A stretch of DNA of 63,709 bases, filler included, from a candidate division WOR-3 bacterium (GTDB lineage Bacteria; SDB-A), in assembly GCA_016934535.1 (NCBI GenBank). It is 9 parts of 8 records of this genome, joined end to end, with 100 filler letters (N's around TTAATTAATTAA, not from the genome) between each part and the next. Parts side by side here need not be neighbours in the genome. Positions count along the whole stretch, not along the records: positions 36,231 to 46,250 come from JAFGSQ010000017.1; 8 more parts are not named here. The stretch is one strand, 5' to 3'. Shown piece by piece: positions 7,654 to 61,093 of the stretch. A program made the translations under genes and the position numbers. Position 1 is the stretch's first letter. Each line of letters opens with the position of its first letter. The notes beneath the pieces were generated by a model, which did no database searches, was not told the origin of the DNA, and saw nothing but the letters and a program-made list of their open reading frames with translations.

Positions 7654-8400
7654 TCAGTTTATCTCTATCGGACCTTCACTTTTACCGAGCAGAAATTGAT
7701 TCAGATACGGGTTGTCAGAGTTTTTAGTTTCTTGCGTTGATCCGGAAAATATTATCTGGCCCTTGTAAAGCATTGCTATCCGCGAAGCCACAGTATAGGC
7801 TGACTCTATGTCGTGGGTTACGACTATGCTCGTTATGTTCAGTCTTGAGTTTAAATCCACTATCAGTTCGTTTATGTGTTCAGCGAGAATGGGATCGAGC
7901 CCTGTGGTCGGCTCGTCGTAAAGAATGTAAGCCGGTTCCATTATAATCGCTCTCGCTATGGCGACCCTTTTTCTCATTCCGCCTGAAAGCTCAGCTGTTT
8001 CGAGAAATTCACAGCCCTTTAAGCCGACCATTTCGAGTTTTTCGGATACCTTGTCCATCATTTCGGAAAAAGGAATTTTTGAATGTTCTTTGAGCGGCAG
8101 TGAAACGTTTTCAGCGACCGACATGGAGTCGAAAAGGGCTCCTCCCTGAAACACGAAACCGAACTTCTTTCTCTGTCTGAAAAGCTCGGGAACGCTTATT
8201 CTTTCAAGATTGACTCCGTCTATTGATATTGTTCCGGAATCGGGCCTTATCAAACCTACCATGTGTTTAAGTAAAACGCTCTTTCCTACGCCTGATTGTC
8301 CTATTATGACGAGCTTTTCGCCGTTTTCGACGTCTATTGACAGGTCTTCGTAAACGATCTTGTTCTCAAATTTTTTGTAGAGATTCTTTATGGAGATCAT
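7654..8400 (-). CDS. mlaF: ABC transporter ATP-binding protein, MlaF family
   Basis: GQSGVGKS, FQGGALFDSMSVAENV, LSGGMRKRVAIARA and YDEPTTGLDP; lies next to mlaE and mlaD. Confidence 0.92.
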   Translation of the reverse strand: MISIKNLYKKFENKIVYEDLSIDVENGEKLVIIGQSGVGKSVLLKHMVGLIRPDSGTISIDGVNLERISVPELFRQRKKFGFVFQGGALFDSMSVAENVSLPLKEHSKIPFSEMMDKVSEKLEMVGLKGCEFLETAELSGGMRKRVAIARAIIMEPAYILYDEPTTGLDPILAEHINELIVDLNSRLNITSIVVTHDIESAYTVASRIAMLYKGQIIFSGSTQETKNSDNPYLNQFLLGKSEGPIEIN

Positions 8401-25065: not shown

Positions 25066-25165
25066 NNNNNNNNNNNNNNNNNNNNNNNNNNNNNNNNNNN
25101 NNNNNNNNNTTAATTAATTAANNNNNNNNNNNNNNNNNNNNNNNNNNNNNNNNNNNNNNNNNNNN
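25066..25165. other. Artificial contig spacer
   Basis: N-run + TTAATTAATTAA (stops in all six frames) + N-run. Confidence 0.98.
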
Positions 25166-30961: not shown

Positions 30962-31061
30962 NNNNNNNNNNNNNNNNNNNNNNNNNNNNNNNNNNNNNNN
31001 NNNNNTTAATTAATTAANNNNNNNNNNNNNNNNNNNNNNNNNNNNNNNNNNNNNNNNNNNN
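30962..31061. other. Artificial contig spacer
   Basis: N-run + TTAATTAATTAA + N-run. Confidence 0.98.
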
Positions 31062-35087: not shown

Positions 35088-36130
35088 GGAAGATAATTCA
35101 CATAGACATGGACGCGTATTACGCGGCGATAGAGCAGAGGGACGACCCTTCTCTCAGGTGTAAACCCGTCATAGTCGGAGGTCCTCCAGGGACGAGAAGC
35201 GTTGTCGCCACTTGCTCCTACGAAGCGAGGAAATTCGGAGTGAGGTCGGCAATGCCGTCAAACAGGGCAAAAATGCTCTGCCCGCAGGGAATTTTCGTAT
35301 ATCCGAGATTCAGGATATACGAAAATGTATCCAGACAGATAAGGAGCATTTTCAGGGAATACACGGACCTTGTCGAGCCTATGTCTTTGGATGAGGCGTA
35401 TCTCGACGTCACCGAAAACAAGAAGGGATTGAAATCGGCAACAGCAATTGCAAAGGAGATAAAGAAAAAAATATTTTTGGAGACAAAACTTACGGCGTCG
35501 GCTGGTGTCTCCTACAACAAATTTCTGGCAAAAGTCGCGTCTGATTTCAAGAAACCCGACGGACTTACAGTCGTTCCGCCGGGGAAAGCGGAAAAATTTT
35601 TAGAGTTACTCGACATAAGGAAATTCTACGGCGTAGGTGAGGCGACGGAAAAGCGGATGAGAAAACTGGGAATAAACAACGGCGCAGACCTCAGAAAAAG
35701 AGGCAGGGAGGAGCTGGAGAAAAATTTCGGTAAAGCTGGAATTTATTACTACGAAATAGTCCGGGGAATAGACGAAAGACCTGTAATAAACGAATGGGAG
35801 AGAAAATCATACGGAAGCGAGACGACATACGAGGAGGATTTGATAAATTTAAACCAAATCAATGGTGAGATCGAAAAACTTTCGAATAAAGTTTTTTTGG
35901 GCACAGAGAAAGAAGGTTTTAAGGCGAGAACGGTTACGATAAAAGTCCGGTACGGTGATTTTACGACGCTTACAAGAAGTCTGACGAGGGAGGACGCTTT
36001 CGCCTCAAGTGAGGATCTTGTAAAAACAGCGTTTTTTTTACTGCGTAAAACCGAAGCCGGAAAAAGAAGCATCAGGCTCCTCGGGGTTACGCTTTCGAAT
36101 TTCTATTCAGATGAAAAAATTATGACAGAG
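35084..36130 (+). CDS. dinB: DNA polymerase IV; probable CTG start; runs into the contig end
   Basis: RKIIHIDMDAYYAAIEQRD, SYEARKFGVRSAMP, SLDEAYLD and KFLAKVASDFKKPDG. Confidence 0.95.
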
Positions 36131-36230
36131 NNNNNNNNNNNNNNNNNNNNNNNNNNNNNNNNNNNNNNNNNNNNTTAATTAATTAANNNNNNNNNNNNNN
36201 NNNNNNNNNNNNNNNNNNNNNNNNNNNNNN
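36131..36230. other. Artificial contig spacer
   Basis: N-run + TTAATTAATTAA + N-run. Confidence 0.98.
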
Positions 36231-36292
36231 ACGCACTGGACTCAAAATCCAGCGGGGTTCGCTCCATATGGGTTCGATTCCCATCTCCGGCA
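36231..36292 (+). tRNA. tRNA-Leu(CAA), 5' truncated
   Basis: Anticodon arm CTGGA-CTCAAAA-TCCAG, long variable arm, T-arm ATGGG-TTCGATT-CCCAT and acceptor 3' strand CTCCGGC-A; no encoded CCA. Confidence 0.9.
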
Positions 36293-38533
36293 TTATCTCC
36301 CGTATTTTATGATCTCTTCACCCTCGTATTCGTTTTCTGTCCTCTGAACTTCCTTGAAATTTCCGGAAAGAAACCGGGCAATCCCGCTTTCTGTTTGTTC
36401 ATTTTGATAATATTTGATTTTTCTGACAAAAAACACGTCTCCGGAAACTTTTACAAGAATTTTCTTCGCCGGTTCTTCGAACGGTTCGGTTTTATTGTAC
36501 TCAATTCCCAGTGTATCCGCTATGAGTCGCGAAGTCTCTTCATTTTTATAAAAATTCTCAGGTTCGTCGCGTACAACAGCGAAATCCGCGGTTCCTTCGT
36601 CTTTTTTCCGAAACCTGATAAAATCCTTGTATGAACGTAAAAAAGAAGACGCCTCAAGAAAAAAGTAGAAAAACAAATTGACGTCCGACAAAATTTCTTT
36701 TGCCGCATTTTTTTCAACAGAACTGATGAGTGACGCCGCGAAAATCGCCTTCAAATTGAGATCTTCAATTTTTCCGATTTCTTTCGCTATCGAAGCGGCG
36801 GCCCAAGCATTCCTGGCCGTCGTCAGGTTGACTTCCCTGAATTTAACTAAAAAATAACCTCCGTCATATTCGCACGAGTCCAGTAGTTCCTTGAAAGCTC
36901 TGAAATCGTTTTCGTGAAATTTAACAGGTGACGCTTTCCTTATTGAAGAAAACGGACACAAAAGGTTTGAACAGAGAAGTTCCGCCGCGTCCGTTCCGAT
37001 TACGTGCCTGTAAATGACTTTTTCAGATCCGCAGGAAGAACAACTCCTGCCCGAAAAATAGAATTTCCGGGAGTATTCGCTGAACGTTTTTCTCATTGCC
37101 GCAAGGTTCGTTTTAAAATTTCTTACGAACAAAAATTCCTGTTTTCTGTTTTCAAAAGAAATTTCAGAGATTATCTTTTCGGACAATCTAGCGCTCACAA
37201 GCGAAACCGATCTCCCCGCCCCGGAAAGCATCCGGCACACATCCCGGCCTCCGTCCGCCGAAAAAACAGTTCCCTTTTGTTTTTCTTTTGTCGAATCAGT
37301 TAATACGTCCCTGAGTGTGAACAATACCCCTTCGGAAGATTTCGACGGCACGTTCATGACGGTTTGTCCGGACACGCTTTCGTCTGCGAAAGATCCGGCT
37401 TTTTCTGCTTCCAGAGCGTACACTTTTAGTTTGACGTCTTTCAAAATGAAGTGCAGTCTGTCTCCTTTGGAAAGTTCAAGGCTTTCTATGAGCTTTTGCG
37501 CGCGGCAGAGTCTTTTTTTGGATTCTTCGTAATCGACGAGCATTTTTTTTCCAAAAACTTCGATTATTATCTGCGTGTCGGTGTCGGGGAAAAATTCGTA
37601 GACAAGCGGCCTCAGGACTATGTAGCCGTCTTTGAGGGATTTTTCCGAAACAGGATTGGTCGTGTAATCTTTTCTCGCTCCGGGCTGGTAGAGGGATCTC
37701 GATTTCTCGTATTCCCATTTTTTTAAGTGCCAGAATCCCCTTCGAGAAGAGGCAAATCTGCTGTCTTCAGTCAGGGCAGACGAGAGGGTGTTGGACTTGA
37801 ATTCGATGCCGAATTTACTGACGAGAATTTTTTTTAATTCCCTGAAAAGCATCGGCTTTTGCTTCTCGGCGAAAACCGAATGAATCATTTCAGTGACATT
37901 GCTTTGTAAATGCCTCGAAGCTGATTTCTCAGGGGCTATTATTGATTTTCCAAGATTAGTGACCGCTTTTCGCTTTATCAGTCTGGAAAGCTCGGCGTAG
38001 AAACCGCCGTCGGGATTGACGTAAATTCCAGAAGAAACGGCGACGTGCTCCGCCAGGTTGTTTCTGTGCACAGGTGTTTTGTGTTCGTTGAAAAATTCTA
38101 TTATTTTTGAAGAAAAAAAATCCCCTATGTTTGCCGTCGGTAAGTCCTGATTTTTCAGCGCAAAATAATCGCTAGTTCCCCATCTGACAAAATTGTTTCC
38201 TACGAGGACTTTTTTCACCTGGAATCCATCCTGCGGTTTTATATGCCTTGAGCCGACCAGACAAGCAACTATCTGGGGCACATACATCGGTCTTTTTCTG
38301 ATTTCGAGGATGGACGCTATCTCGTTTTTGAGGCTGAGCTCGCTCTCCGACCTGCCGACAACTCTCCAAACACCGTTTCCGTCGCTTTCAAATCTGCTGT
38401 CCTGACTCATCAAAGCGTTGACAGTTCCCGGGTTGACTATAATGCCCGATTTTGCAAGAAGATCCGATATATCCTTGTAATGAAGGTTCGGATTTTTTTC
38501 AAGCACCGAGAATATTTCTGTCGCGATGCTCAG
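36293..38533 (-). CDS. Multidomain hypothetical protein: four winged-helix (HARE-HTH-like) repeats, barrel-like domain and Zn-ribbon
   Basis: Repeated helix...PM/H...I...DSRF..G.W pattern; CSSC...CSNLLC. The start is either GTG at 38506 or CTG at 38533. Confidence 0.75.
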   Translation of the reverse strand: MSIATEIFSVLEKNPNLHYKDISDLLAKSGIIVNPGTVNALMSQDSRFESDGNGVWRVVGRSESELSLKNEIASILEIRKRPMYVPQIVACLVGSRHIKPQDGFQVKKVLVGNNFVRWGTSDYFALKNQDLPTANIGDFFSSKIIEFFNEHKTPVHRNNLAEHVAVSSGIYVNPDGGFYAELSRLIKRKAVTNLGKSIIAPEKSASRHLQSNVTEMIHSVFAEKQKPMLFRELKKILVSKFGIEFKSNTLSSALTEDSRFASSRRGFWHLKKWEYEKSRSLYQPGARKDYTTNPVSEKSLKDGYIVLRPLVYEFFPDTDTQIIIEVFGKKMLVDYEESKKRLCRAQKLIESLELSKGDRLHFILKDVKLKVYALEAEKAGSFADESVSGQTVMNVPSKSSEGVLFTLRDVLTDSTKEKQKGTVFSADGGRDVCRMLSGAGRSVSLVSARLSEKIISEISFENRKQEFLFVRNFKTNLAAMRKTFSEYSRKFYFSGRSCSSCGSEKVIYRHVIGTDAAELLCSNLLCPFSSIRKASPVKFHENDFRAFKELLDSCEYDGGYFLVKFREVNLTTARNAWAAASIAKEIGKIEDLNLKAIFAASLISSVEKNAAKEILSDVNLFFYFFLEASSFLRSYKDFIRFRKKDEGTADFAVVRDEPENFYKNEETSRLIADTLGIEYNKTEPFEEPAKKILVKVSGDVFFVRKIKYYQNEQTESGIARFLSGNFKEVQRTENEYEGEEIIKYGR

Positions 38534-39045
38534 ATGCGCTCCGTTTTTGAAAGCACATCAAGATAAATTTTCAGGTCTTCGTCTGAAAAACAGACAAAGA
38601 CTACCTCTTCTGGAAAAAAGTGTTCTTCAGAAAATTTCAACACGGTTGACACCGCTGTTTCTGCGGCCGCATTTTTAGGATAACCGTAAACGCCTGTGCT
38701 CACAGCTGGAAAAGCAATTTTTTTTATCTTGTTTTCCTCCGCCAGAAGAAGGCAGTTTTTGTAGCAATCTTCCAGAAGATCTGCTTCTCCTTTGTCTCCT
38801 CCCCTCCACACCGGACCGACCGTGTGTATTATGTATTTCGCTTTCATCTTGAAACCGGGAGTGATTTTGGCGCCGCCGGTTTTACAACCACCCAATTTTC
38901 TGCAGTGATCGAGAAGCTCAGGTCCTGCGGTCCTGTGGATTGCGCCGTCTACTCCTCCCCCGCCGAGAAGAGCCTCGTTCGCCGCGTTGACAACGGCTTC
39001 ACTTTCAATTTTCGTTATGTCGCCTCTGACGGCAGAAATTTTCAT
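38530..39045 (-). CDS. Macrodomain protein (O-acetyl-ADP-ribose deacetylase, YmdB/MacroD-like)
   Basis: GDIT, VNAANEALLGGGGVDGAIH, IIHTVGP and AFPAVSTGVYGYP. Confidence 0.95.
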   Translation of the reverse strand: MKISAVRGDITKIESEAVVNAANEALLGGGGVDGAIHRTAGPELLDHCRKLGGCKTGGAKITPGFKMKAKYIIHTVGPVWRGGDKGEADLLEDCYKNCLLLAEENKIKKIAFPAVSTGVYGYPKNAAAETAVSTVLKFSEEHFFPEEVVFVCFSDEDLKIYLDVLSKTERI

Positions 39046-39140
39046 TTACCCTTCAAAAACATTGTGGATTTTATAAAAATTTTAACATATAATCCGAAAA
39101 ATCAGCACCAGGATTTTATCACATATTTTTAGGAGGTTGC

Positions 39141-41177
39141 GTGAGAGTCTTCGCATTTTCCGTCCTATTTATAATGTTAGCTTTATCAAGTATTTTACCC
39201 GCCCAGGGGTACAAATATCATTCGTATTATTCAATTTTAGCTCAGTCTGGACTGGACGTTGATAGAATCCGGAGTGTCGAGGGGATTCTGATAGTCGGCA
39301 GAAACGACAAAAATATTTTCGTCGCGGCAGACGATATTTCTGCTTCAAAAGTCGCTTCTCTCGGTTACGTGATAACCAAATCCTCGCAGGATGAAATTTT
39401 CGGCGCTCCGCTTGACGGTTATTACCACACTTGGTCACAAGTCATGAGCGAGATAGATTCTTTCACAGAAACTTATCCGAACATAGCAAAGTGCGACACC
39501 ATAGGTTTTTCAGTTCAAAACAGACCCATCATCAGAGTTAAAATCAGCGACAATCCCGGCCAAAACGAACTCGAAGGCAGGATTCAGTTCAACGGTTGTC
39601 ATCACGGAAACGAAAAGATTTCGACCGAGATAAATCTGTATTTCATGCGTTATCTCTGCGAGAACTACGGCGTCTTGAGCGAAGTGACATCTCTCGTAGA
39701 CAACAGGGAGATATATTTCGTCCCGGTAGTCAATCCCGACGGTTTTGTCTTGAATCAGAGATACAACGCCAACAATATAGATCTCAACCGCGACTACGGA
39801 TACCACTGGTTCAACGAGAGCGGCGCCTCGAATCCTTTTTCTGAACCTGAATCCAGAACGATGAGGGACGACTTCATCTCGACAGGCTATTCAATTACAC
39901 TCGATTATCATTCGACGGCTTCTTACGTCAATTACCTGTGGGATTACTCTCCGAGAATTGTGCCGGATTACTACGAAGTGGTGAACATGTTCTCTCTTCC
40001 ATACGCCGATTCAACCGGTTACACGCCCATAAAAGGTTACGATTGGTACCAGATAGCGGGTTCATGCCAGGACGCAACCTACGGCCTTTTCGGCATTCTC
40101 GCCGTGACAATAGAATCTCAGATGCCTGGAGATCCCGACCCGGAATGCCTTAAAAACAGGGGCGCGATGAAATACGTCGCGAAACTCGCCGGATACGGCA
40201 TACAGGGCTACGTGCTCGACTCCGTCACCGGACAGCCTGTCGAGGCAGTTCTTTTCTTTCAAAAAGGTTCAGATCCGAAATGGCCTGTCAATTCGAGCGC
40301 TCTGTCTGGCGATTATCAAAAAATCCTTTCTCCGGGAACTTATTCAGTAACTGCTCACGCGCCGGGTCATGTTTCAAAGACTTTTTCTGTCCAGGTTTTA
40401 GCCGACACATCAATAAGGCAGGATTTCCATCTCGCACCATCGGACAGCCGTTTCGGAATGAGAATGATGTGCGCGAGACAGGAATACAGCAATTTCAGCA
40501 ACACCACTTACACTTTCGACGCCCTGGGACCCGCTGATGGAATTGCCATGTCTATGAACAGGCAGGGCTACGCGATAATAGATTTCGGAGAAAATTTCCC
40601 CGTGACAGACGTTGCGGGATACGATCTGAAAGTCTGCGAAGCAAACGACGGAACTGCTGATTCCTGTTTCGTTTATGTTGGCAACACTCCCGAATACGCC
40701 GGAACGTGGATTTATCTGGGAAAAATCTCGGGTACGGACAGTTTCGACATCTCCGCGACCGGTCTTTCGCAGGTCAGGTACGTGAAAATAATGGACGACG
40801 GAGGTTCGACTTCGGGAGCCAAACCGGGCTACGACCTCGACGCCGTCCAGGGCATCAATCAGCCAAATTCGATAGAAGAACCGGTTTATCCCGTCACACC
40901 AGGAAACGTCTCTTTTTCTCTGACCGGCGGCTTTTTTTCGGACAAAGAGCTTTTGATATCAAATCTCAGCACCGAAACCATCAGGGTTCAAATCTCTATT
41001 GCTGACGTCTCAGGGAGAGTTGTCGCGTCAGATGATATAACCGCCGGAGCCGGAACCACTTCATACTCCATCAAAAACAGCACACTCGGCAGAGAGATGA
41101 CTGGTTCAAACATTTACTTTTTGATAGTGGAAACCGATTTTATTTCCGAATCGTATAAAATACTTTTGTTCCGTTAA
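39141..41177 (+). CDS. Secreted M14 zinc carboxypeptidase with C-terminal sorting-like domain
   Basis: HHGNE (HxxE), NPDG, RYNANNIDLNRDY, DYHS and TIE; tail DVSGRVV...IYFLIV...KILLFR. Confidence 0.9.
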   Translation: MRVFAFSVLFIMLALSSILPAQGYKYHSYYSILAQSGLDVDRIRSVEGILIVGRNDKNIFVAADDISASKVASLGYVITKSSQDEIFGAPLDGYYHTWSQVMSEIDSFTETYPNIAKCDTIGFSVQNRPIIRVKISDNPGQNELEGRIQFNGCHHGNEKISTEINLYFMRYLCENYGVLSEVTSLVDNREIYFVPVVNPDGFVLNQRYNANNIDLNRDYGYHWFNESGASNPFSEPESRTMRDDFISTGYSITLDYHSTASYVNYLWDYSPRIVPDYYEVVNMFSLPYADSTGYTPIKGYDWYQIAGSCQDATYGLFGILAVTIESQMPGDPDPECLKNRGAMKYVAKLAGYGIQGYVLDSVTGQPVEAVLFFQKGSDPKWPVNSSALSGDYQKILSPGTYSVTAHAPGHVSKTFSVQVLADTSIRQDFHLAPSDSRFGMRMMCARQEYSNFSNTTYTFDALGPADGIAMSMNRQGYAIIDFGENFPVTDVAGYDLKVCEANDGTADSCFVYVGNTPEYAGTWIYLGKISGTDSFDISATGLSQVRYVKIMDDGGSTSGAKPGYDLDAVQGINQPNSIEEPVYPVTPGNVSFSLTGGFFSDKELLISNLSTETIRVQISIADVSGRVVASDDITAGAGTTSYSIKNSTLGREMTGSNIYFLIVETDFISESYKILLFR

Positions 41178-41202
41178 AAACGATTGGTAGAAGCGGGAAA
41201 AG

Positions 41203-42972
41203 TTATTCTTCTCTGTTTAGAAATTCGAGTATGGTGGCGGCTTTTTTTTCGCTTATGGATTTAATTTGAGTTAAATCTTTTATCGAACTGTTTTTGATAT
41301 TTTCTGTATTTTTGAATTTTTTTCTCAGCTCTCTGGCCGTCTTCTCTCCGACGCCGGGAATTTCCAAAAAAGAGGACTTGAACAAATTTTTTGTCCTTTT
41401 CTTCCTGTGAGCGGTAATACCAAACCTGTGACACTCGTCCCTGATTCTCTTCAGAAGAAAAAGTACGGGAGAAAAACCGGGAAATGTCATCATATTTCCG
41501 TCCTCGAAATGTACGCTTTCGAGTCTTTTCGCAATCGAAATTGTTTTTACGTCAAGACCGGAATATTTCATTGCCGAAACAGCCGATTTGAGCTGTTCGG
41601 GTCCTCCGTCTACAATGACGAGATCGGGTTTTTCAAGGTCGCCGGATATAACACGGTTTGAAAATTTTTCCGCGATAAATCCAACCGCTTTCAAATCGTC
41701 GAAACCTTCCGGGATGTCGTATTGCCTGTACATGCTTTTGTTCGGCTTCGCGTTCTTGAAACATATCTGGCTTCCTTTTATCTCCCTGAATTTGGTGTGC
41801 GAGACGTCGAAACAGTAAATCACAGCCGGAGTGTTTTCGAGTTTCAAAGCGACGGCGAAATCCCTTAACAGGGGAGGGACGCCTCGTTTTACAGGTACCA
41901 GAGCGCTCAAGGCGATTTTTGACGTCTCTTCAATTTTTTCTTTTTCAAACTGGTTTTTCGGCGTCTTTATTGATGTCCTGACCCCGTGAGTCTCTTTTAT
42001 CCATTCCTCGAGAAGTTTTTTTTCCTGAACATTTGCGCCGGTTAAAATAATCATGGGCGGTTGTCTCGACCTGTAGAAATCGACGATAAACCTGCCGAGG
42101 GCTTCATCGTCGTCGGTCTCCTGGAAAATATCCGTCATCACTGGAAAAGCTTCATGGAGTCTTCCTTCCCTTATCTGCATGACGAAAAAACAGCCCTTTC
42201 TCCCCCTTCTCGCGAATCCCAAAAGATCCCTGTCCCTGCCGTCGTTGAAAATGGCTCTCTCTCCGAACATGACATTCTTCATGTGATTTATAGCGTCTCT
42301 TTTCTCCGCCGCTTTTTCGTACTCTGTTTTCAGGGACAATTCAGCCATTTCAGTTTCGAATTTTTTTATAAGCTTTTTGACTCCTCCGGATAAAAAACCG
42401 GCAAATGAATTCATACTTTCCCTGTAATCGGGCAAAGTTATCTTTCCCGCGCAAGGCGCCGAACAGAGCCCTATGTGAAAATCGAGGCATTCTTTCGACT
42501 GCAGCGGCCCCTTGCATGACCTGTACCTGAAATATTTTCTCGACAAAAACAGCGTGTTCCTAAGTGAATTGGGCTTGAGATATGGACCAAAATATTTAGC
42601 CCCGTCCTTTTTCACTCTCCTGACGACCTCCGGATACGGCCATTTTTCCTTGAAATCAATTCTTATGTATGGGAACCTCTTGTCGTCCTTAAGAAGCACA
42701 TTGTATTTAGGCTTGTGGAATTTTATCAGGTCGGCTTCGAGAATCAGCGCTTCCTGCTCGTTCTTGAGAGTCAGGAAATCGAGACTTCGTGAAAACTTCA
42801 GAAGATGAAAATTTTTCGGGCTATCTTCGTTGAAATAATTTACTATGCGCTTTTTTATGCTTTTCGCTTTGCCTATGTAAAGAGGCTTTCCATTTCCATC
42901 CCTGAAAATATACACGCCGGGTGTGTCCGGCGCGTTTTTGGCTTTTTCTTTTATCTTTTCTTTGTTTTTCAC
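41203..42972 (-). CDS. uvrC: Excinuclease ABC subunit C
   Basis: PGVYIF...YIGKAK GIY-YIG domain, PKYNVLLKDDKRFPY, FDVSH, DGG, RDECHRF and an HhH tail. Confidence 0.96.
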   Translation of the reverse strand: MKNKEKIKEKAKNAPDTPGVYIFRDGNGKPLYIGKAKSIKKRIVNYFNEDSPKNFHLLKFSRSLDFLTLKNEQEALILEADLIKFHKPKYNVLLKDDKRFPYIRIDFKEKWPYPEVVRRVKKDGAKYFGPYLKPNSLRNTLFLSRKYFRYRSCKGPLQSKECLDFHIGLCSAPCAGKITLPDYRESMNSFAGFLSGGVKKLIKKFETEMAELSLKTEYEKAAEKRDAINHMKNVMFGERAIFNDGRDRDLLGFARRGRKGCFFVMQIREGRLHEAFPVMTDIFQETDDDEALGRFIVDFYRSRQPPMIILTGANVQEKKLLEEWIKETHGVRTSIKTPKNQFEKEKIEETSKIALSALVPVKRGVPPLLRDFAVALKLENTPAVIYCFDVSHTKFREIKGSQICFKNAKPNKSMYRQYDIPEGFDDLKAVGFIAEKFSNRVISGDLEKPDLVIVDGGPEQLKSAVSAMKYSGLDVKTISIAKRLESVHFEDGNMMTFPGFSPVLFLLKRIRDECHRFGITAHRKKRTKNLFKSSFLEIPGVGEKTARELRKKFKNTENIKNSSIKDLTQIKSISEKKAATILEFLNREE

Positions 42973-42985
42973 AAGAAAAGGCTTG

Positions 42986-44743
42986 TCACCTCACAACTGC
43001 TATTCTCGCTATGTCCTTGCCGTATCCGGTTTCCAGAACAAGAAAATATAGGCCCGAGGCGACGAAGTCTCTGTTCTCGTTCATCCCTTCCCAGTACATA
43101 ACGTGTCTGCCGTCGTCTATCACACCGAGCTCGTACTTCCAAACCATCGTACCGTCGAGTGAAAACACGTAAAAGCTGGCATAAGTTCTGTCCAGCAGGA
43201 TGTACTCAATGCACAAAACATCTGTGTTTGAAGGCTTGAAAGGATTAGGATATATTAGCTGTATCGAGTTTTCGGTTACAGGTTCTACATCAGGGGTCTG
43301 ACTGTGAAGAGCTCTGTAGATATTAACTACGCCCCATCCTGTGCTGTCGTCAGGGCTGGAGCTTTGTGAAGCAGTTGATTTGAGCGCGTTAATAACATCC
43401 GAAACCCTCCACGAAGGATGCGCTTGAAGAAGAAGGGCGACGCCTCCGGCAGTGACTGCCGTCGCGCATGATGTCCCGCCCGCATAACTGTAGCCGCTAT
43501 CGCCGGTGTTAGGTTCAACTGTCAGAGCCCACCAGGAGGCTGAGACCTCGGGTTTTCTTCTTCCGTCTACGGTCGGTCCGCACGCGCTCGCGTACCATGT
43601 GCTGTTGGATGTTGAAAATCTCTTGTAATGAGCTCCGGTCGAATCAGTTCCGCCCATAGTCAATATGGAGTCGGCGTCAGCCGGCGTTTTTATACAAGTG
43701 TCGAGATCAGGCTCCATCGCAGTATTTGTCCATGTTATGTTGCTTATTGCAGTGAGGACGACTATTCCGGCTCTTGAGGCTAAAAATGCCGCTCTCGCCG
43801 CGTAAGTCGTGTTTCCGTCCATGGAATTATATGACCAGTCGAGAGTGTCTCTGAATATTTTGTAAGAAAGGCTCGAAGATATTATGTCCGCTCCCGCCGA
43901 GTCGGCCCTTTCGGCGGCCAATACCCACCAGTGCTCTTCATGAACCACGTCGAGGCTGTTGCCGTCGTACCATTCTGTCTTGTACAGGCAGTAATAAGAA
44001 TTCTTTGCCGCTCCGATCAGCATTCCGGATTTATCACCCGCAAGGAGACCGAACATCCTGGTTCCGTGCCTGAATTCACCGAGGGGATCGGGGTAATTTA
44101 TTGTGTCGAGCGGATCCCCCTGAGCCGTAGAATGATTGCCGTTGACGAAATCCCACTCGTCAAATATTTTGACGCTGTCAACTTCTGAAAACCTTTTAAG
44201 CGCTTCGTGAGTCCTGTTGAAACCTGAATCGAATATTGATATGATGACGCCTTCGCCTCTGTATCCTTCATCGTGGCATTGTTTAATACCAAGGAACGAA
44301 AGCTGGAACTCGCTGGGTCCGTATATAAGATCGCTGTCAAATGATTTATAAATTTCGGTCTGGTCTAATTCGGATTCGCAACTGTTTACCCTGTCAATAT
44401 AACTTACAAAACCGAGTCTTTCTATGTTTTGTAAAACCGAGGGATCGTCAGTTCTTACCACAACCGAATTCAGCCATTTCGAGCTTCCAATTATTTCCGC
44501 TCCGGAATTCTTGACTTCGTCGACGTAAAACGGGCTCGGAGGTGCGTCGTCCAGAGTTACCCCAGAACCTCTTATCGTTCTCCTCCACAGTGACCTCGGG
44601 GAGAGAAGGTTTTCGGCCTCTTGCAGCACTGCGTCAATTCCTCCCCTTCTCTCGACGTCCTTGTCGGTGAAGAAAACCCAGTAATCTGCTCCTTCGATGC
44701 ACATAGCAGAAAACAGCATTAATATAATTGATAATTTTTTCAT
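42986..44743 (-). CDS. Secreted subtilisin-like (S8) peptidase with FlgD-Ig tail
   Basis: Triad motifs FDSGF, HGT and GGTSCAT; C-terminal YPNPF...WEG...VASGLYFL. Confidence 0.9.
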   Translation of the reverse strand: MKKLSIILMLFSAMCIEGADYWVFFTDKDVERRGGIDAVLQEAENLLSPRSLWRRTIRGSGVTLDDAPPSPFYVDEVKNSGAEIIGSSKWLNSVVVRTDDPSVLQNIERLGFVSYIDRVNSCESELDQTEIYKSFDSDLIYGPSEFQLSFLGIKQCHDEGYRGEGVIISIFDSGFNRTHEALKRFSEVDSVKIFDEWDFVNGNHSTAQGDPLDTINYPDPLGEFRHGTRMFGLLAGDKSGMLIGAAKNSYYCLYKTEWYDGNSLDVVHEEHWWVLAAERADSAGADIISSSLSYKIFRDTLDWSYNSMDGNTTYAARAAFLASRAGIVVLTAISNITWTNTAMEPDLDTCIKTPADADSILTMGGTDSTGAHYKRFSTSNSTWYASACGPTVDGRRKPEVSASWWALTVEPNTGDSGYSYAGGTSCATAVTAGGVALLLQAHPSWRVSDVINALKSTASQSSSPDDSTGWGVVNIYRALHSQTPDVEPVTENSIQLIYPNPFKPSNTDVLCIEYILLDRTYASFYVFSLDGTMVWKYELGVIDDGRHVMYWEGMNENRDFVASGLYFLVLETGYGKDIARIAVVR

Positions 44744-44759
44744 TTTTCCTCCGTTAAAA

Positions 44760-45953
44760 TTACTTGAAAACCATTTTCATGAGGGTTGGAACTATTGACG
44801 ATGACATTTTAAAAAGAACCGGAACCGATTTAATCAGTCCCAGAAGCATTTCGTCCGCCGAAAACTCTTCAATATTCTTTCCGTCGAGATTCTTTTTAGC
44901 CCATTCGAAAACGGGCGGTAGAAGTTTTTTGTCGTTGGCTACATAAATATTTCTGAGAAAAAGTCTCTGTTCGAACTGTCTTCCCTCTCCGTGCCACCAC
45001 GCCTTGTCGTATATGCCGGAATCCTCCAATTTGTCTTTTTTCAAAAGTTTCGTCGCTATTTCGGACGCCAGCTTTGCTGATGTCAGAGCGGGGCCTATTC
45101 CGCCTCCGCTCAAAGGATCGGCCAGCCTCGCCGCGTCTCCGACGAGAAAGACACCTTTGGCTGAAATTCTCTCCATTTTTTTCACGGGCACAACTCCGGC
45201 CAGTTCCGATACAATTCCGACGCCCTGAAAGTCCCTGTTCAGCCATTCGCCGAGTCTCTCGAACGCTCTCTTGCCTCCTGCGTCGCCTCTTATGCCGAGG
45301 CCTATGTTCGCTGCGTGATTTTCCTTGGGAAAACTCCAGGCGTATCCTCCCGTGAAAAGATCTTCGTCGAGGGCTAAAAGAAGGGTTTCATCCTCCTCCC
45401 TGCCTGAGACGTCGGCTCTGACCTCACAACAGGAATAAATGTCCTTGGGTGCAATGCTCGTGTCTATGCCGGCCATCTTGCCAACAACAGATTCCGGTCC
45501 GTCGGCTCCGATTACAATTTTCGCCTCGACCTCTATGGTGGATCCGTCTTTGGTTCCTCTTGCCGTCCAAAGACCGTCCCTTGATTCCAATTCATTTACA
45601 GAAAAGCCCAAAATTATTTCGGCTCCCTCTCTGGCGGCCAAAAAAGCGATGTGCTGGTCGAAAAGAGCCCTGTTGAGAATGACGCCGTGCCCCGGAGCTT
45701 TGAGCCTCACCCTTTCGCCCTTGTAGTCTATAATTATTTTGTCAATTTTACAGGATATCAGGTTTTCTGGTATGTCGCCGACGACATCCCTTATGGTCGG
45801 CAGGTCTAAGCCTTCGGCACACCTTATGTCTTTTGCAATTTCGCGGTTTCTTTCCGCGATGACGACCTTAAAACCCTCGTGAGCCAAAAATCTCGCCGCA
45901 GTTGCACCGGCGGGTCCGCAGCCGACTACGAGTATGTCACTTTTTATCTTCAT
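44760..45953 (-). CDS. Geranylgeranyl reductase family FAD oxidoreductase (DGGR-like)
   Basis: VGCGPAG, RCAEG, GADG, GGYAWSFPK and VGDAARLADPLSGGGI. Confidence 0.85.
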   Translation of the reverse strand: MKIKSDILVVGCGPAGATAARFLAHEGFKVVIAERNREIAKDIRCAEGLDLPTIRDVVGDIPENLISCKIDKIIIDYKGERVRLKAPGHGVILNRALFDQHIAFLAAREGAEIILGFSVNELESRDGLWTARGTKDGSTIEVEAKIVIGADGPESVVGKMAGIDTSIAPKDIYSCCEVRADVSGREEDETLLLALDEDLFTGGYAWSFPKENHAANIGLGIRGDAGGKRAFERLGEWLNRDFQGVGIVSELAGVVPVKKMERISAKGVFLVGDAARLADPLSGGGIGPALTSAKLASEIATKLLKKDKLEDSGIYDKAWWHGEGRQFEQRLFLRNIYVANDKKLLPPVFEWAKKNLDGKNIEEFSADEMLLGLIKSVPVLFKMSSSIVPTLMKMVFK

Positions 45954-46140
45954 CTTCGGCTCCGGCAGTTATCGCGCCTTGGGGGCACACTTTTTCGCAG
46001 TTAAAACAGGACACGCATTTTTTCGGTGAATAATGCAGTTTTCCTGATCTGACTATCAGAGCCAGGGGTTTGCACACGGCGACACAGCCGCCGCATACCC
46101 TGCATTTTAAATGGTCGATCGATATTTTTATCATTTTCAC
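45937..46140 (-). CDS. 2x[4Fe-4S] ferredoxin
   Basis: CRVCGGCVAVCKP and CVSCFNCEKVCP. Confidence 0.92.
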   Translation of the reverse strand: MKMIKISIDHLKCRVCGGCVAVCKPLALIVRSGKLHYSPKKCVSCFNCEKVCPQGAITAGAEDEDKK

Positions 46141-46250
46141 TCCATAAGCAATTCGGGCAGGTTTCTGCCGACGGTTCTGACGTATATGAAATACGCTGTA
46201 ATGGAAGGAATTATACTCAAAGCGAGCAATATAATCAAAAGTAAAATTAT
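46137..46250 (-). CDS. C-terminal fragment of a membrane protein
   Basis: IILLLIILLALSIIPSITAYFIYVRTVGRNLPELLME*; its stop overlaps the ferredoxin GTG (GTGA). Confidence 0.6.
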   Translation of the reverse strand: MILLLIILLALSIIPSITAYFIYVRTVGRNLPELLME

Positions 46251-46350
46251 NNNNNNNNNNNNNNNNNNNNNNNNNNNNNNNNNNNNNNNNNNNNTTAATT
46301 AATTAANNNNNNNNNNNNNNNNNNNNNNNNNNNNNNNNNNNNNNNNNNNN
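46251..46350. other. Artificial contig spacer
   Basis: N-run + TTAATTAATTAA + N-run. Confidence 0.98.
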
Positions 46351-48691: not shown

Positions 48692-48791
48692 NNNNNNNNN
48701 NNNNNNNNNNNNNNNNNNNNNNNNNNNNNNNNNNNTTAATTAATTAANNNNNNNNNNNNNNNNNNNNNNNNNNNNNNNNNNNNNNNNNNNN
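48692..48791. other. Artificial contig spacer
   Basis: N-run + TTAATTAATTAA + N-run. Confidence 0.98.
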
Positions 48792-53322: not shown

Positions 53323-53422
53323 NNNNNNNNNNNNNNNNNNNNNNNNNNNNNNNNNNNNNNNNNNNNTTAATTAATTAANNNNNNNNNNNNNNNNNNNNNN
53401 NNNNNNNNNNNNNNNNNNNNNN
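53323..53422. other. Artificial contig spacer
   Basis: N-run + TTAATTAATTAA + N-run. Confidence 0.98.
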
Positions 53423-57922: not shown

Positions 57923-58022
57923 NNNNNNNNNNNNNNNNNNNNNNNNNNNNNNNNNNNNNNNNNNNNTTAATTAATTAANNNNNNNNNNNNNNNNNNNNNN
58001 NNNNNNNNNNNNNNNNNNNNNN
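57923..58022. other. Artificial contig spacer
   Basis: N-run + TTAATTAATTAA + N-run. Confidence 0.98.
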
Positions 58023-60993: not shown

Positions 60994-61093
60994 NNNNNNN
61001 NNNNNNNNNNNNNNNNNNNNNNNNNNNNNNNNNNNNNTTAATTAATTAANNNNNNNNNNNNNNNNNNNNNNNNNNNNNNNNNNNNNNNNNNNN
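60994..61093. other. Artificial contig spacer
   Basis: N-run + TTAATTAATTAA + N-run. Confidence 0.98.

Follow-up and report, generated by a model that had tools for sequence, protein, structure and literature searches.

A protein with predicted HARE-HTH, B3-type, and methyltransferase-type folds encoded beside a macrodomain gene in candidate division WOR-3 bacteria

In prokaryotes, HARE-HTH winged helices occur in fusions with restriction endonucleases and N6-adenine methyltransferases, according to passages of PMC4738411, and parts of that source and of PMC10853773 describe the prokaryotic domain as a likely reader of modified DNA. Here, we describe a large open reading frame (ORF) that lies directly downstream of a macrodomain gene in the genome of a candidate division WOR-3 bacterium (GCA_016934535.1), within a 63,709-nucleotide stretch of DNA that was analyzed as a whole and is hereafter called the window. 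Its product is predicted to carry four HARE-HTH-type units, a B3-type pseudobarrel, and a pseudo-methyltransferase bearing a zinc ribbon, an architecture that is new, although its parts are known. We propose, with a probability of roughly 0.55, that this large protein is a vertically inherited, phylum-restricted nucleic-acid-binding protein, most likely a DNA-binding one, that would have arisen from a fusion of reader and methyltransferase domains and would now have a chromosomal or regulatory function.

Predicted domains of the large protein

The large ORF and the domains predicted in its product are as follows.

36293..38533, minus strand: large ORF, 746 amino acids from CTG at 38533 or 737 amino acids from GTG at 38506; stop codon at 36293-36295
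38354..38533, minus strand: unit 1, residues 1-60, a HARE-HTH-like winged helix
38132..38353, minus strand: unit 2, residues 61-134, a diverged HARE-HTH
37934..38131, minus strand: unit 3, residues 135-200, built of three helices and likely a degenerate winged helix
37706..37912, minus strand: unit 4, residues 208-276, the best-preserved HARE-HTH
37382..37681, minus strand: B3-type DNA-binding pseudobarrel, residues 285-384
37163..37351, minus strand: N-terminal segment of the methyltransferase-type Rossmann fold (residues 395-457), with one helix before each of strands 1 and 2
36698..37162, minus strand: insertion of about 155 residues, residues 458-612 (basic helix, C4 zinc ribbon, helical bundle)
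36296..36697, minus strand: C-terminal segment of the methyltransferase-type fold (residues 613-746), with strands 3-7 and a terminal hairpin

In an AlphaFold2 model of the whole protein (11-sequence alignment, pLDDT 78.5, pTM 0.70), residues 1 to 276 form four helical units, of which units 1 and 4 display a helix-helix-helix-strand-strand pattern. Units 1 and 4 align with each other in hhalign at 95.5% (E 1.4e-8). Unit 2 aligns with unit 4 at 59% over the first 30 residues only, unit 3 aligns with unit 4 at 10%, and unit 1 aligns with unit 2 at 0.2%. Most of the domain calls hold: as judged by these alignments, units 1 and 4 appear to be clear HARE-HTH homologs, and units 2 and 3 appear to be diverged versions. 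When compared with the Pfam HARE-HTH family (PF05066), unit 4 scored 25.2 bits over residues 213 to 273, just below the cutoff of 25.9, and the orthologous units of two relatives, P0005 and P0006, scored 44.8 and 40.7 bits. Membership in PF05066 is evident at the level of the family and borderline for the window sequence, which holds the only match to this profile in the whole genome. Foldseek, in rows given without residue ranges, lists the N-terminal domains of RNA polymerase delta subunits (2krc, 6zca_D, and 7f75_L), and unit 4 matches the delta model TIGR04567 with an E value of 5.8e-5 and 23.2 bits, below the cutoff of 42.

Units 2 and 3 are modeled as three helices with low-confidence wings; the wing of unit 2 has a pLDDT of <50, and the helices of unit 3 span residues 136 to 151, 157 to 168, and 177 to 187. 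Unit 2 carries the wing motif RWGTSDY, in which R117, W118, G119, S121, D122, and Y123 are invariant. Pfam HARE-HTH matches at residues 68 to 100 of relative P0004 and 104 to 152 of the distant relative P0009 are the equivalents of units 2 and 3, respectively, as placed by phmmer offset. The assignment of these two units to HARE-HTH, which comes through relatives only, appears partly confirmed. Among the weak matches in other proteins, P0010 (984 amino acids) and P0013 (513 amino acids) consist almost wholly of tandem HARE-HTH-like repeats ending in '...RFKKV..G.WGLA.WDAARLADF', and thus tandem HARE-HTH arrays occur elsewhere. A further protein, P0012 (367 amino acids), matches the MzaA sigma-factor models of PADLOC/NCBIfam with E values of 8.4e-11 and 1.4e-14 and the delta model with an E value of 7.6e-9.

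The segment that follows unit 4 superposes, in the model, on solved B3 domains. A VIA structure search aligned residues 287 to 380 with the B3 domain of FUS3 (6j9b_D) at Z 12.3, with a root mean square deviation (rmsd) of 2.1 Å over 92 of 106 residues. Foldseek lists VAL1, FUS3, TEM1, and NGA1 at a probability of 1.00, along with LlaJI.R1-N and BfiI-C, and the target-normalized TM-score with VAL1 is 0.66 to 0.69. The region is predicted with a pLDDT of 74 to 85, and neither the large protein nor its relatives match Pfam B3 or EcoRII-N at E ≤ 1. Residues 212 to 383, which span unit 4 and the barrel, align as one block with P0011 (323 amino acids; hhalign 95.3%, E 2.3e-8) and with a 523-amino-acid protein of genome G058 (hhalign 96.1%, E 2.9e-9), as evidence from sequence profiles that unit 4 and the B3 domain constitute a two-domain module that is also found in other phyla. 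The G058 protein (positions 508-2079 of locus L007, minus strand) belongs to an unrelated phylum, and its HARE-HTH scores 47 bits on TIGR04567 (cutoff, 42). By eye, its gene adjoins shikimate dehydrogenase-like and HD-GYP-like ORFs, and a 'FDVEIK' stretch in its C-terminal part could belong to a PD-(D/E)xK nuclease.

The remaining residues, from about 395 to 746, are predicted to adopt a class I S-adenosylmethionine (SAM)-methyltransferase fold of seven strands with a terminal hairpin. A separate model of residues 395 to 746 (6 sequences, pLDDT 83.5, pTM 0.83) was compared with known structures by VIA, and 50 of the 50 matches listed have the SAM-methyltransferase fold (Z 8.9 to 10.9, about 130 to 154 residues aligned). 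The best among the matches listed is 3l8d_A (Z 10.9, rmsd 4.1 Å, 147 residues aligned), and no methyltransferase subfamily stands out among them. The whole-protein model likewise retrieved methyltransferases at Z 10 to 11.6 over about 130 to 160 residues, and a second VIA search of the C-terminal model, against the PDB, agrees in returning methyltransferase-fold entries. The background stated for VIA is Z 7 to 8.

Between strand 2 (residues 442 to 447) and strand 3 (residues 616 to 618), the fold is interrupted by a long helix at 463 to 491, a zinc ribbon, and a helical bundle at 541 to 610. The four zinc-ribbon cysteines (C498, C501, C521, and C526) are invariant in all seven aligned sequences, including that of P0009. 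In all six sequences for which net charge was computed, both the helix (+4.5 to +8.8) and the ribbon (+1.8 to +3.8) are basic. Among the matches listed, no structure covers the insertion at residues 458 to 612.

The enzymatic motifs of the methyltransferase fold have decayed. Here, motif positions were assigned from the order of secondary-structure elements in the models, not from residue-level superposition. The loop after strand 1 varies by lineage (DGGRD, EGALD, HSGVE, QSGVD, LTSD, and LPLE), with no conserved glycine-rich motif I. Likewise, no acidic residue after strand 2 is conserved among orthologs, and the segment after strand 4, at the position of motif IV, reads DEPENFY in the window protein and is variable and gapped in orthologs. 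None of the six C-terminal domains matches a methyltransferase family in Pfam at E ≤ 10; the only matches are to scattered zinc-ribbon families, in one member each. Moreover, conservation is lowest in the Rossmann core (28 to 43% identity within the genus and 15 to 27% across genera), and because the reader domains are better conserved (45 to 74% and 23 to 44%, respectively), the pattern fits a reader and is the opposite of that expected of an enzyme. Since orthologs do not share the motifs for SAM binding and catalysis, the methyltransferase domain is probably inactive, a pseudoenzyme. Other catalytically inactive proteins with a methyltransferase fold include METTL14 and mitochondrial TFB2.

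The origin of the domain may be glimpsed in P0009, whose segment after strand 4, '...MLPYNG', is closer to a DPPY-type motif, and whose stretch 624-707 weakly matches the PADLOC model mad2 (E 0.0023). Together, these features hint at descent from an amino-methyltransferase. A specific link to DNA methyltransferases of the Dam/DpnM type was considered and is unsupported, as such enzymes appear in weak Foldseek rows and in none of the 50 matches listed by VIA. Elsewhere in the genome, a profile search detected one N6_N4 methyltransferase and no match to Dam-type PF02086 or to PF02384.

A preliminary description of this locus, made from the DNA sequence alone, had recognized much of this architecture. 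Its HARE-HTH or RNA polymerase delta-type wings are present by Pfam, hhalign, and Foldseek; its B3/EcoRII-N-type barrel reappears in the model; its C4 zinc ribbon is confirmed by the invariant cysteines; and its remark that no intact catalytic site is visible in the large protein agrees with the degenerate positions of motifs I, II, and IV. The claim of four related units stands for units 1 and 4, whereas the relationship of units 2 and 3 to the others is weak. The description overlooked the methyltransferase fold predicted in the C-terminal 350 residues, and the helices that it read as having HD-domain spacing form the bundle of the insertion inside that fold, which rules out an HD domain.

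Distribution and genomic context

In the genome set used here, the phylum comprises six species genomes from three genera of one family, and the large protein is encoded once in each of the six. Two close homologs are annotated as 'hypothetical protein [candidate division WOR-3 bacterium]'. Among 55 genomes sampled outside the phylum, only G058 gave a match, a weak one (E 4.6e-4) limited to residues 212 to 384. The family is also small in much larger collections. A word-indexed search of 5.8 billion proteins, in which 7999 candidates were scored, returned 4 proteins at E ≤ 1e-3; further searches of this kind, each scoring the 7999 to 8000 candidates that share the most words, returned 4 and 2 proteins; and an exhaustive search of 1.84 billion representatives returned 8 at E ≤ 1e-3, only 3 of them below 1e-30. 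No relatives were found by tblastn in 72,556 plasmids and 50,697 phage records, no relative was confirmed in scans of JGI metagenome contigs with P0009 or with alignment A2, and the ESM Atlas gave no usable match to residues 290 to 746. A sequence-profile search of the PDB gave nothing below an E value of 0.03 (I73R, RNA polymerase delta, and eS27 zinc ribbons headed its list), and Foldseek searches of the PDB and BFVD gave no row at E ≤ 0.001, although their B3 and delta rows have a probability of 1.00.

Two further genes adjoin the large ORF in the window.

38530..39045, minus strand: macrodomain gene, 171 amino acids, with a stop codon that overlaps the large ORF at its start
36231..36292, plus strand: 3' part of tRNA-Leu(CAA), convergent with the large ORF; Rfam RF00005

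This arrangement belongs to a longer conserved block. The same gene order, which is kept across all three genera of the phylum, is found in G001, G002, G003, and G005: UvrC, a divergently oriented M14 carboxypeptidase, the macrodomain protein, the large ORF, tRNA-Leu, a MiaB-like radical-SAM methylthiotransferase, a pair of beta-propeller proteins, a hexapeptide-repeat protein, and, as judged by eye, subunits that resemble 2-oxoacid:ferredoxin oxidoreductase. An S8 protease is also among the ordinary genes of the block. In G004, the contig begins within the large ORF, and the downstream order is unchanged. The macrodomain gene adjoins the large ORF in all four relatives for which the upstream DNA is assembled. 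Because all of the surrounding genes are equally syntenic and the six genomes are kin, this adjacency by itself argues only weakly for a functional tie. Neither the macrodomain protein nor the large protein matches any family in PADLOC-DB v2 at E ≤ 1.

The macrodomain protein itself is of the ordinary YmdB/MacroD type, in the O-acetyl-ADP-ribose deacetylase class. It scores 162.5 bits on Pfam Macro (PF01661; cutoff, 22) and 222.7 bits on NCBIfam NF001664 (O-acetyl-ADP-ribose deacetylase; cutoff, 200). Across five orthologs, mean column identity is 76%, with the glycine-rich stretches NAAN, GGGGVDGAIH, and STGVYGYP unchanged in all of them. The Macro profile has one match in the whole genome, at this locus, and two SIR2 (sirtuin) genes lie elsewhere.

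The TGA stop of the macrodomain gene overlaps the CTG codon at 38533-38531 that opens the 746-amino-acid frame. When ORFs are called from ATG, GTG, and TTG only, the start falls 9 codons downstream, at GTG 38506, and the product has 737 amino acids; the source annotation of P0003, which is 93% identical, also starts at the downstream GTG (737 amino acids). Orthologs start at a homologous 'MSI...' position with ATG (in two), GTG, or TTG, which makes the reading of about 746 amino acids plausible, although in this genome it depends on a CTG start. Either CTG 38531-38533 is the real start, or the protein of this species lacks the first nine residues of helix 1. In the orthologous pairs, the two genes overlap by 4 nucleotides or 1 nucleotide or are separated by gaps of 5 and 15 nucleotides, and they are separate ORFs, which rules out a fusion of the macrodomain and large ORFs by frameshift. 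We read the overlap as a sign that the macrodomain gene is cotranscribed and translationally coupled with the large ORF. Co-folding of the two proteins gave a score of 0.00 without controls and counts for neither side.

On the other flank, an Rfam search (RF00005) detected a tRNA of 33.1 bits at 36231-36292 on the plus strand, covering model positions 21 to 71 of 71 and truncated at its 5' end. ARAGORN finds no tRNA in the window because the gene is truncated by the contig end and the N spacer. An intact, convergent tRNA-Leu(CAA) abuts the stop of the large ORF in five of five relatives. In these relatives (L008 to L012), its 3' end touches the stop codon or overlaps it by one base, and in the window the tRNA ends at 36292 and the stop begins at 36293, leaving no space for a terminator between the two.

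The truncation reflects how the window was assembled, from nine contigs joined by eight spacers, each of the form N44-TTAATTAATTAA-N44. The locus lies on a contig of about 10 kb (36231-46250) that begins inside the tRNA gene. The spacers are at the following positions.

25066-25165: spacer
30962-31061: spacer
36131-36230: spacer
46251-46350: spacer
48692-48791: spacer
53323-53422: spacer
57923-58022: spacer
60994-61093: spacer

Genes that flank a spacer are not genomic neighbors, since the spacers join separate contigs. One such gene is a DinB-like ORF ending at 36130, which is cut by a contig end and in the genome lies beside neither the tRNA nor the large ORF.

Several statements of the preliminary description about this neighborhood proved accurate. 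The macrodomain stop does overlap the start of an ORF of about 746 amino acids, if the CTG codon is used, and the tRNA beside the large ORF is real. The linkage to the macrodomain, which would have carried less weight had it been unique to this genome, recurs in the four testable relatives, and the large protein matches no described family from end to end in Pfam, NCBIfam, PADLOC, or the PDB.

Proposed function and rival explanations

We envision that four HARE-HTH-type winged helices and a B3 pseudobarrel would allow multivalent contact with DNA, a reading based on five domains of DNA-binding kinds, the HARE-HTH fusions described in the literature, and the basic character of the protein (isoelectric point of 9.07, net charge of +15.8). 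Within this array, the pair of unit 4 and B3 would be an older module common to proteins of other phyla. The C-terminal half, its SAM-binding and catalytic motifs decayed, would serve as a noncatalytic scaffold or as an extra nucleic-acid-binding surface. A fusion of reader and methyltransferase would thereby have been domesticated and fixed as a core gene that encodes a chromosomal or regulatory DNA-binding protein of the lineage. The upstream gene, for a YmdB-type hydrolase of ADP-ribose derivatives, would be coexpressed, and a functional tie with the large protein may exist. The single copy in every genome, the synteny, and the lack of PADLOC matches and of plasmid or phage relatives argue for a place in the core genome.

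Several points weigh against this proposal. The structural models were built from shallow alignments of 11 and 6 sequences, and Z scores of 10 to 12 are only moderately above the VIA background. The HARE-HTH of RNA polymerase delta binds the polymerase and not DNA, and winged helices of this kind therefore need not bind DNA. Even P0009 retains the invariant residues R441, N619, and D650, and because the motif positions follow from secondary-structure order only, the domain may hold an unusual pocket for SAM or another nucleotide. The coupling to the macrodomain gene in four of four testable relatives could be functional. The proposed restriction-modification ancestry draws on one weak match and on general knowledge of the domains, and no RNA sequencing runs containing the locus were found; one DNA run contains the whole stretch and may be its source sample.

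The kinship with delta suggests another role, in which the HARE-HTH units dock on RNA polymerase; the barrel, ribbon, and pseudo-methyltransferase contact DNA or RNA; and the protein acts as a lineage-specific transcription factor. The match of unit 4 to TIGR04567 and the delta domains listed by Foldseek fit such a role, as do the scores of P0011 (58.3 bits) and the G058 protein (47 bits), both above the cutoff of that model, the pairing of sigma-70 region 4 with HARE-HTH in P0012, and a gene that is core, single-copy, and phylum-wide. We nevertheless consider it unlikely: the large protein itself stays well short of the cutoff (23.2 versus 42 bits) and has no acidic tail of the delta type, and likeness to delta is a property of the entire HARE-HTH family, members of which were found in 2 of 14 control genomes, those of Bacillus subtilis and Lactococcus lactis, the two Bacillota. 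Somewhat further down our scale of probability is an active, highly divergent DNA or RNA methyltransferase that the winged helices, barrel, and ribbon target to its substrate, whether as an orphan or epigenetic enzyme or as an RNA methylase, an option raised by the tRNA and MiaB-like neighbors. The insertion between the SAM-binding and catalytic halves is reminiscent of the target-recognition domains found in some DNA methyltransferases. The modeled fold has all seven strands, RNA or protein methyltransferases account for many of the highest-ranking structural rows, DpnM, Dam, and CamA appear weakly in Foldseek, and the three invariant residues named above could be explained by activity. Yet six orthologs conserve neither the glycine-rich loop nor the post-strand-2 acid nor the motif after strand 4; none of their C-terminal domains matches a methyltransferase family in Pfam; the fold core is the part under least constraint by identity; and no structural row rises above the generic methyltransferase background.

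The preliminary description had suggested an undescribed two-gene module for surveillance or defense, with the large protein as a sensor of DNA and the macrodomain as the enzyme that undoes or processes ADP-ribosylation. In all five genomes where both genes are assembled, the macrodomain stop and the start of the large ORF overlap or are ≤15 nucleotides apart; no other macrodomain or HARE-HTH protein turned up in the genome; and HARE-HTH and B3/EcoRII-N-type domains are characteristic of proteins that act in restriction or sense modified DNA, as parts of PMC4738411 and the Foldseek rows for LlaJI.R1-N and BfiI-C indicate. We find the module unsupported and quite improbable, however. Neither protein has a PADLOC match, and the model shows no effector domain, be it a nuclease, an ADP-ribosyltransferase, or an NTPase. 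Defense genes would be expected to be patchy, whereas this gene is core, single-copy, and syntenic among ordinary genes in six of six genomes, with no plasmid or phage relatives. In addition, the macrodomain is of the ordinary YmdB type in a genome with sirtuin genes elsewhere, and the G058 relative has no macrodomain gene within about 1.5 kb on either side. The two genes might instead form a phylum-wide regulatory unit that links chromatin-like DNA binding to the metabolism of nicotinamide adenine dinucleotide (NAD). In that case, a reader-methyltransferase of restriction-modification origin would have been domesticated to bind the chromosome; its decayed Rossmann pocket would have lost SAM binding and would sense an adenine nucleotide such as ADP-ribose or O-acetyl-ADP-ribose, or the protein would be ADP-ribosylated, and the coupled macrodomain would set the signal. 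To this idea we assign the slimmest chance of those considered here. If true, the NAD-linked pair would be a bacterial counterpart of the ties between HARE-HTH or macrodomains and chromatin in eukaryotes.

Meaning and comparison with known systems

If our proposal is correct, parts familiar from restriction-modification (HARE-HTH, B3, and the methyltransferase fold) have been fixed as a core, vertically inherited protein of a small uncultured phylum, while the enzyme half has been reduced by decay to a scaffold. The protein would then be a candidate lineage-specific chromosomal or transcription factor in a group that has no cultured member, and HARE-HTH plus B3 would be a new two-domain module that extends to other phyla. 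A false lead is also removed, as there is no cause to count the locus among new defense systems. Practical importance is modest, for a tiny family (the eight representatives among 1.84 billion) whose function we infer.

Compared with described systems, the upstream gene is a full member of the YmdB/MacroD macrodomain proteins by NF001664 and Pfam Macro, and it differs only in its coupling to an unusual downstream gene. Unit 4 belongs to the same HARE-HTH family as the N-terminal domain of RNA polymerase delta (RpoE), but the large protein has up to 746 residues, four units, unrelated C-terminal domains, and no acidic tail. Its C-terminal half shares the seven-stranded Rossmann-type fold and terminal hairpin of class I SAM-dependent methyltransferases in the model and departs from them in its 155-residue insertion of zinc ribbon and helices and in motifs I, II, and IV, which are not conserved. 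Residues 285 to 384 have the same predicted fold as the pseudobarrels of B3, EcoRII-N, BfiI-C, and LlaJI.R1-N, with a sequence identity of only 14 to 21%; here, the barrel comes directly after a HARE-HTH and is followed by a pseudo-methyltransferase instead of a nuclease. In composition, the large protein resembles the prokaryotic HARE-HTH restriction-modification fusions of Aravind & Iyer 2012, as related in part of PMC4738411, which likewise join HARE-HTH to methyltransferase-fold and other DNA-binding modules. Relative to the fusions as portrayed there, the large protein has four tandem units instead of one, degenerate methyltransferase motifs, and no nuclease partner, and its gene occupies a syntenic place in the core genome instead of a variable restriction-modification locus.

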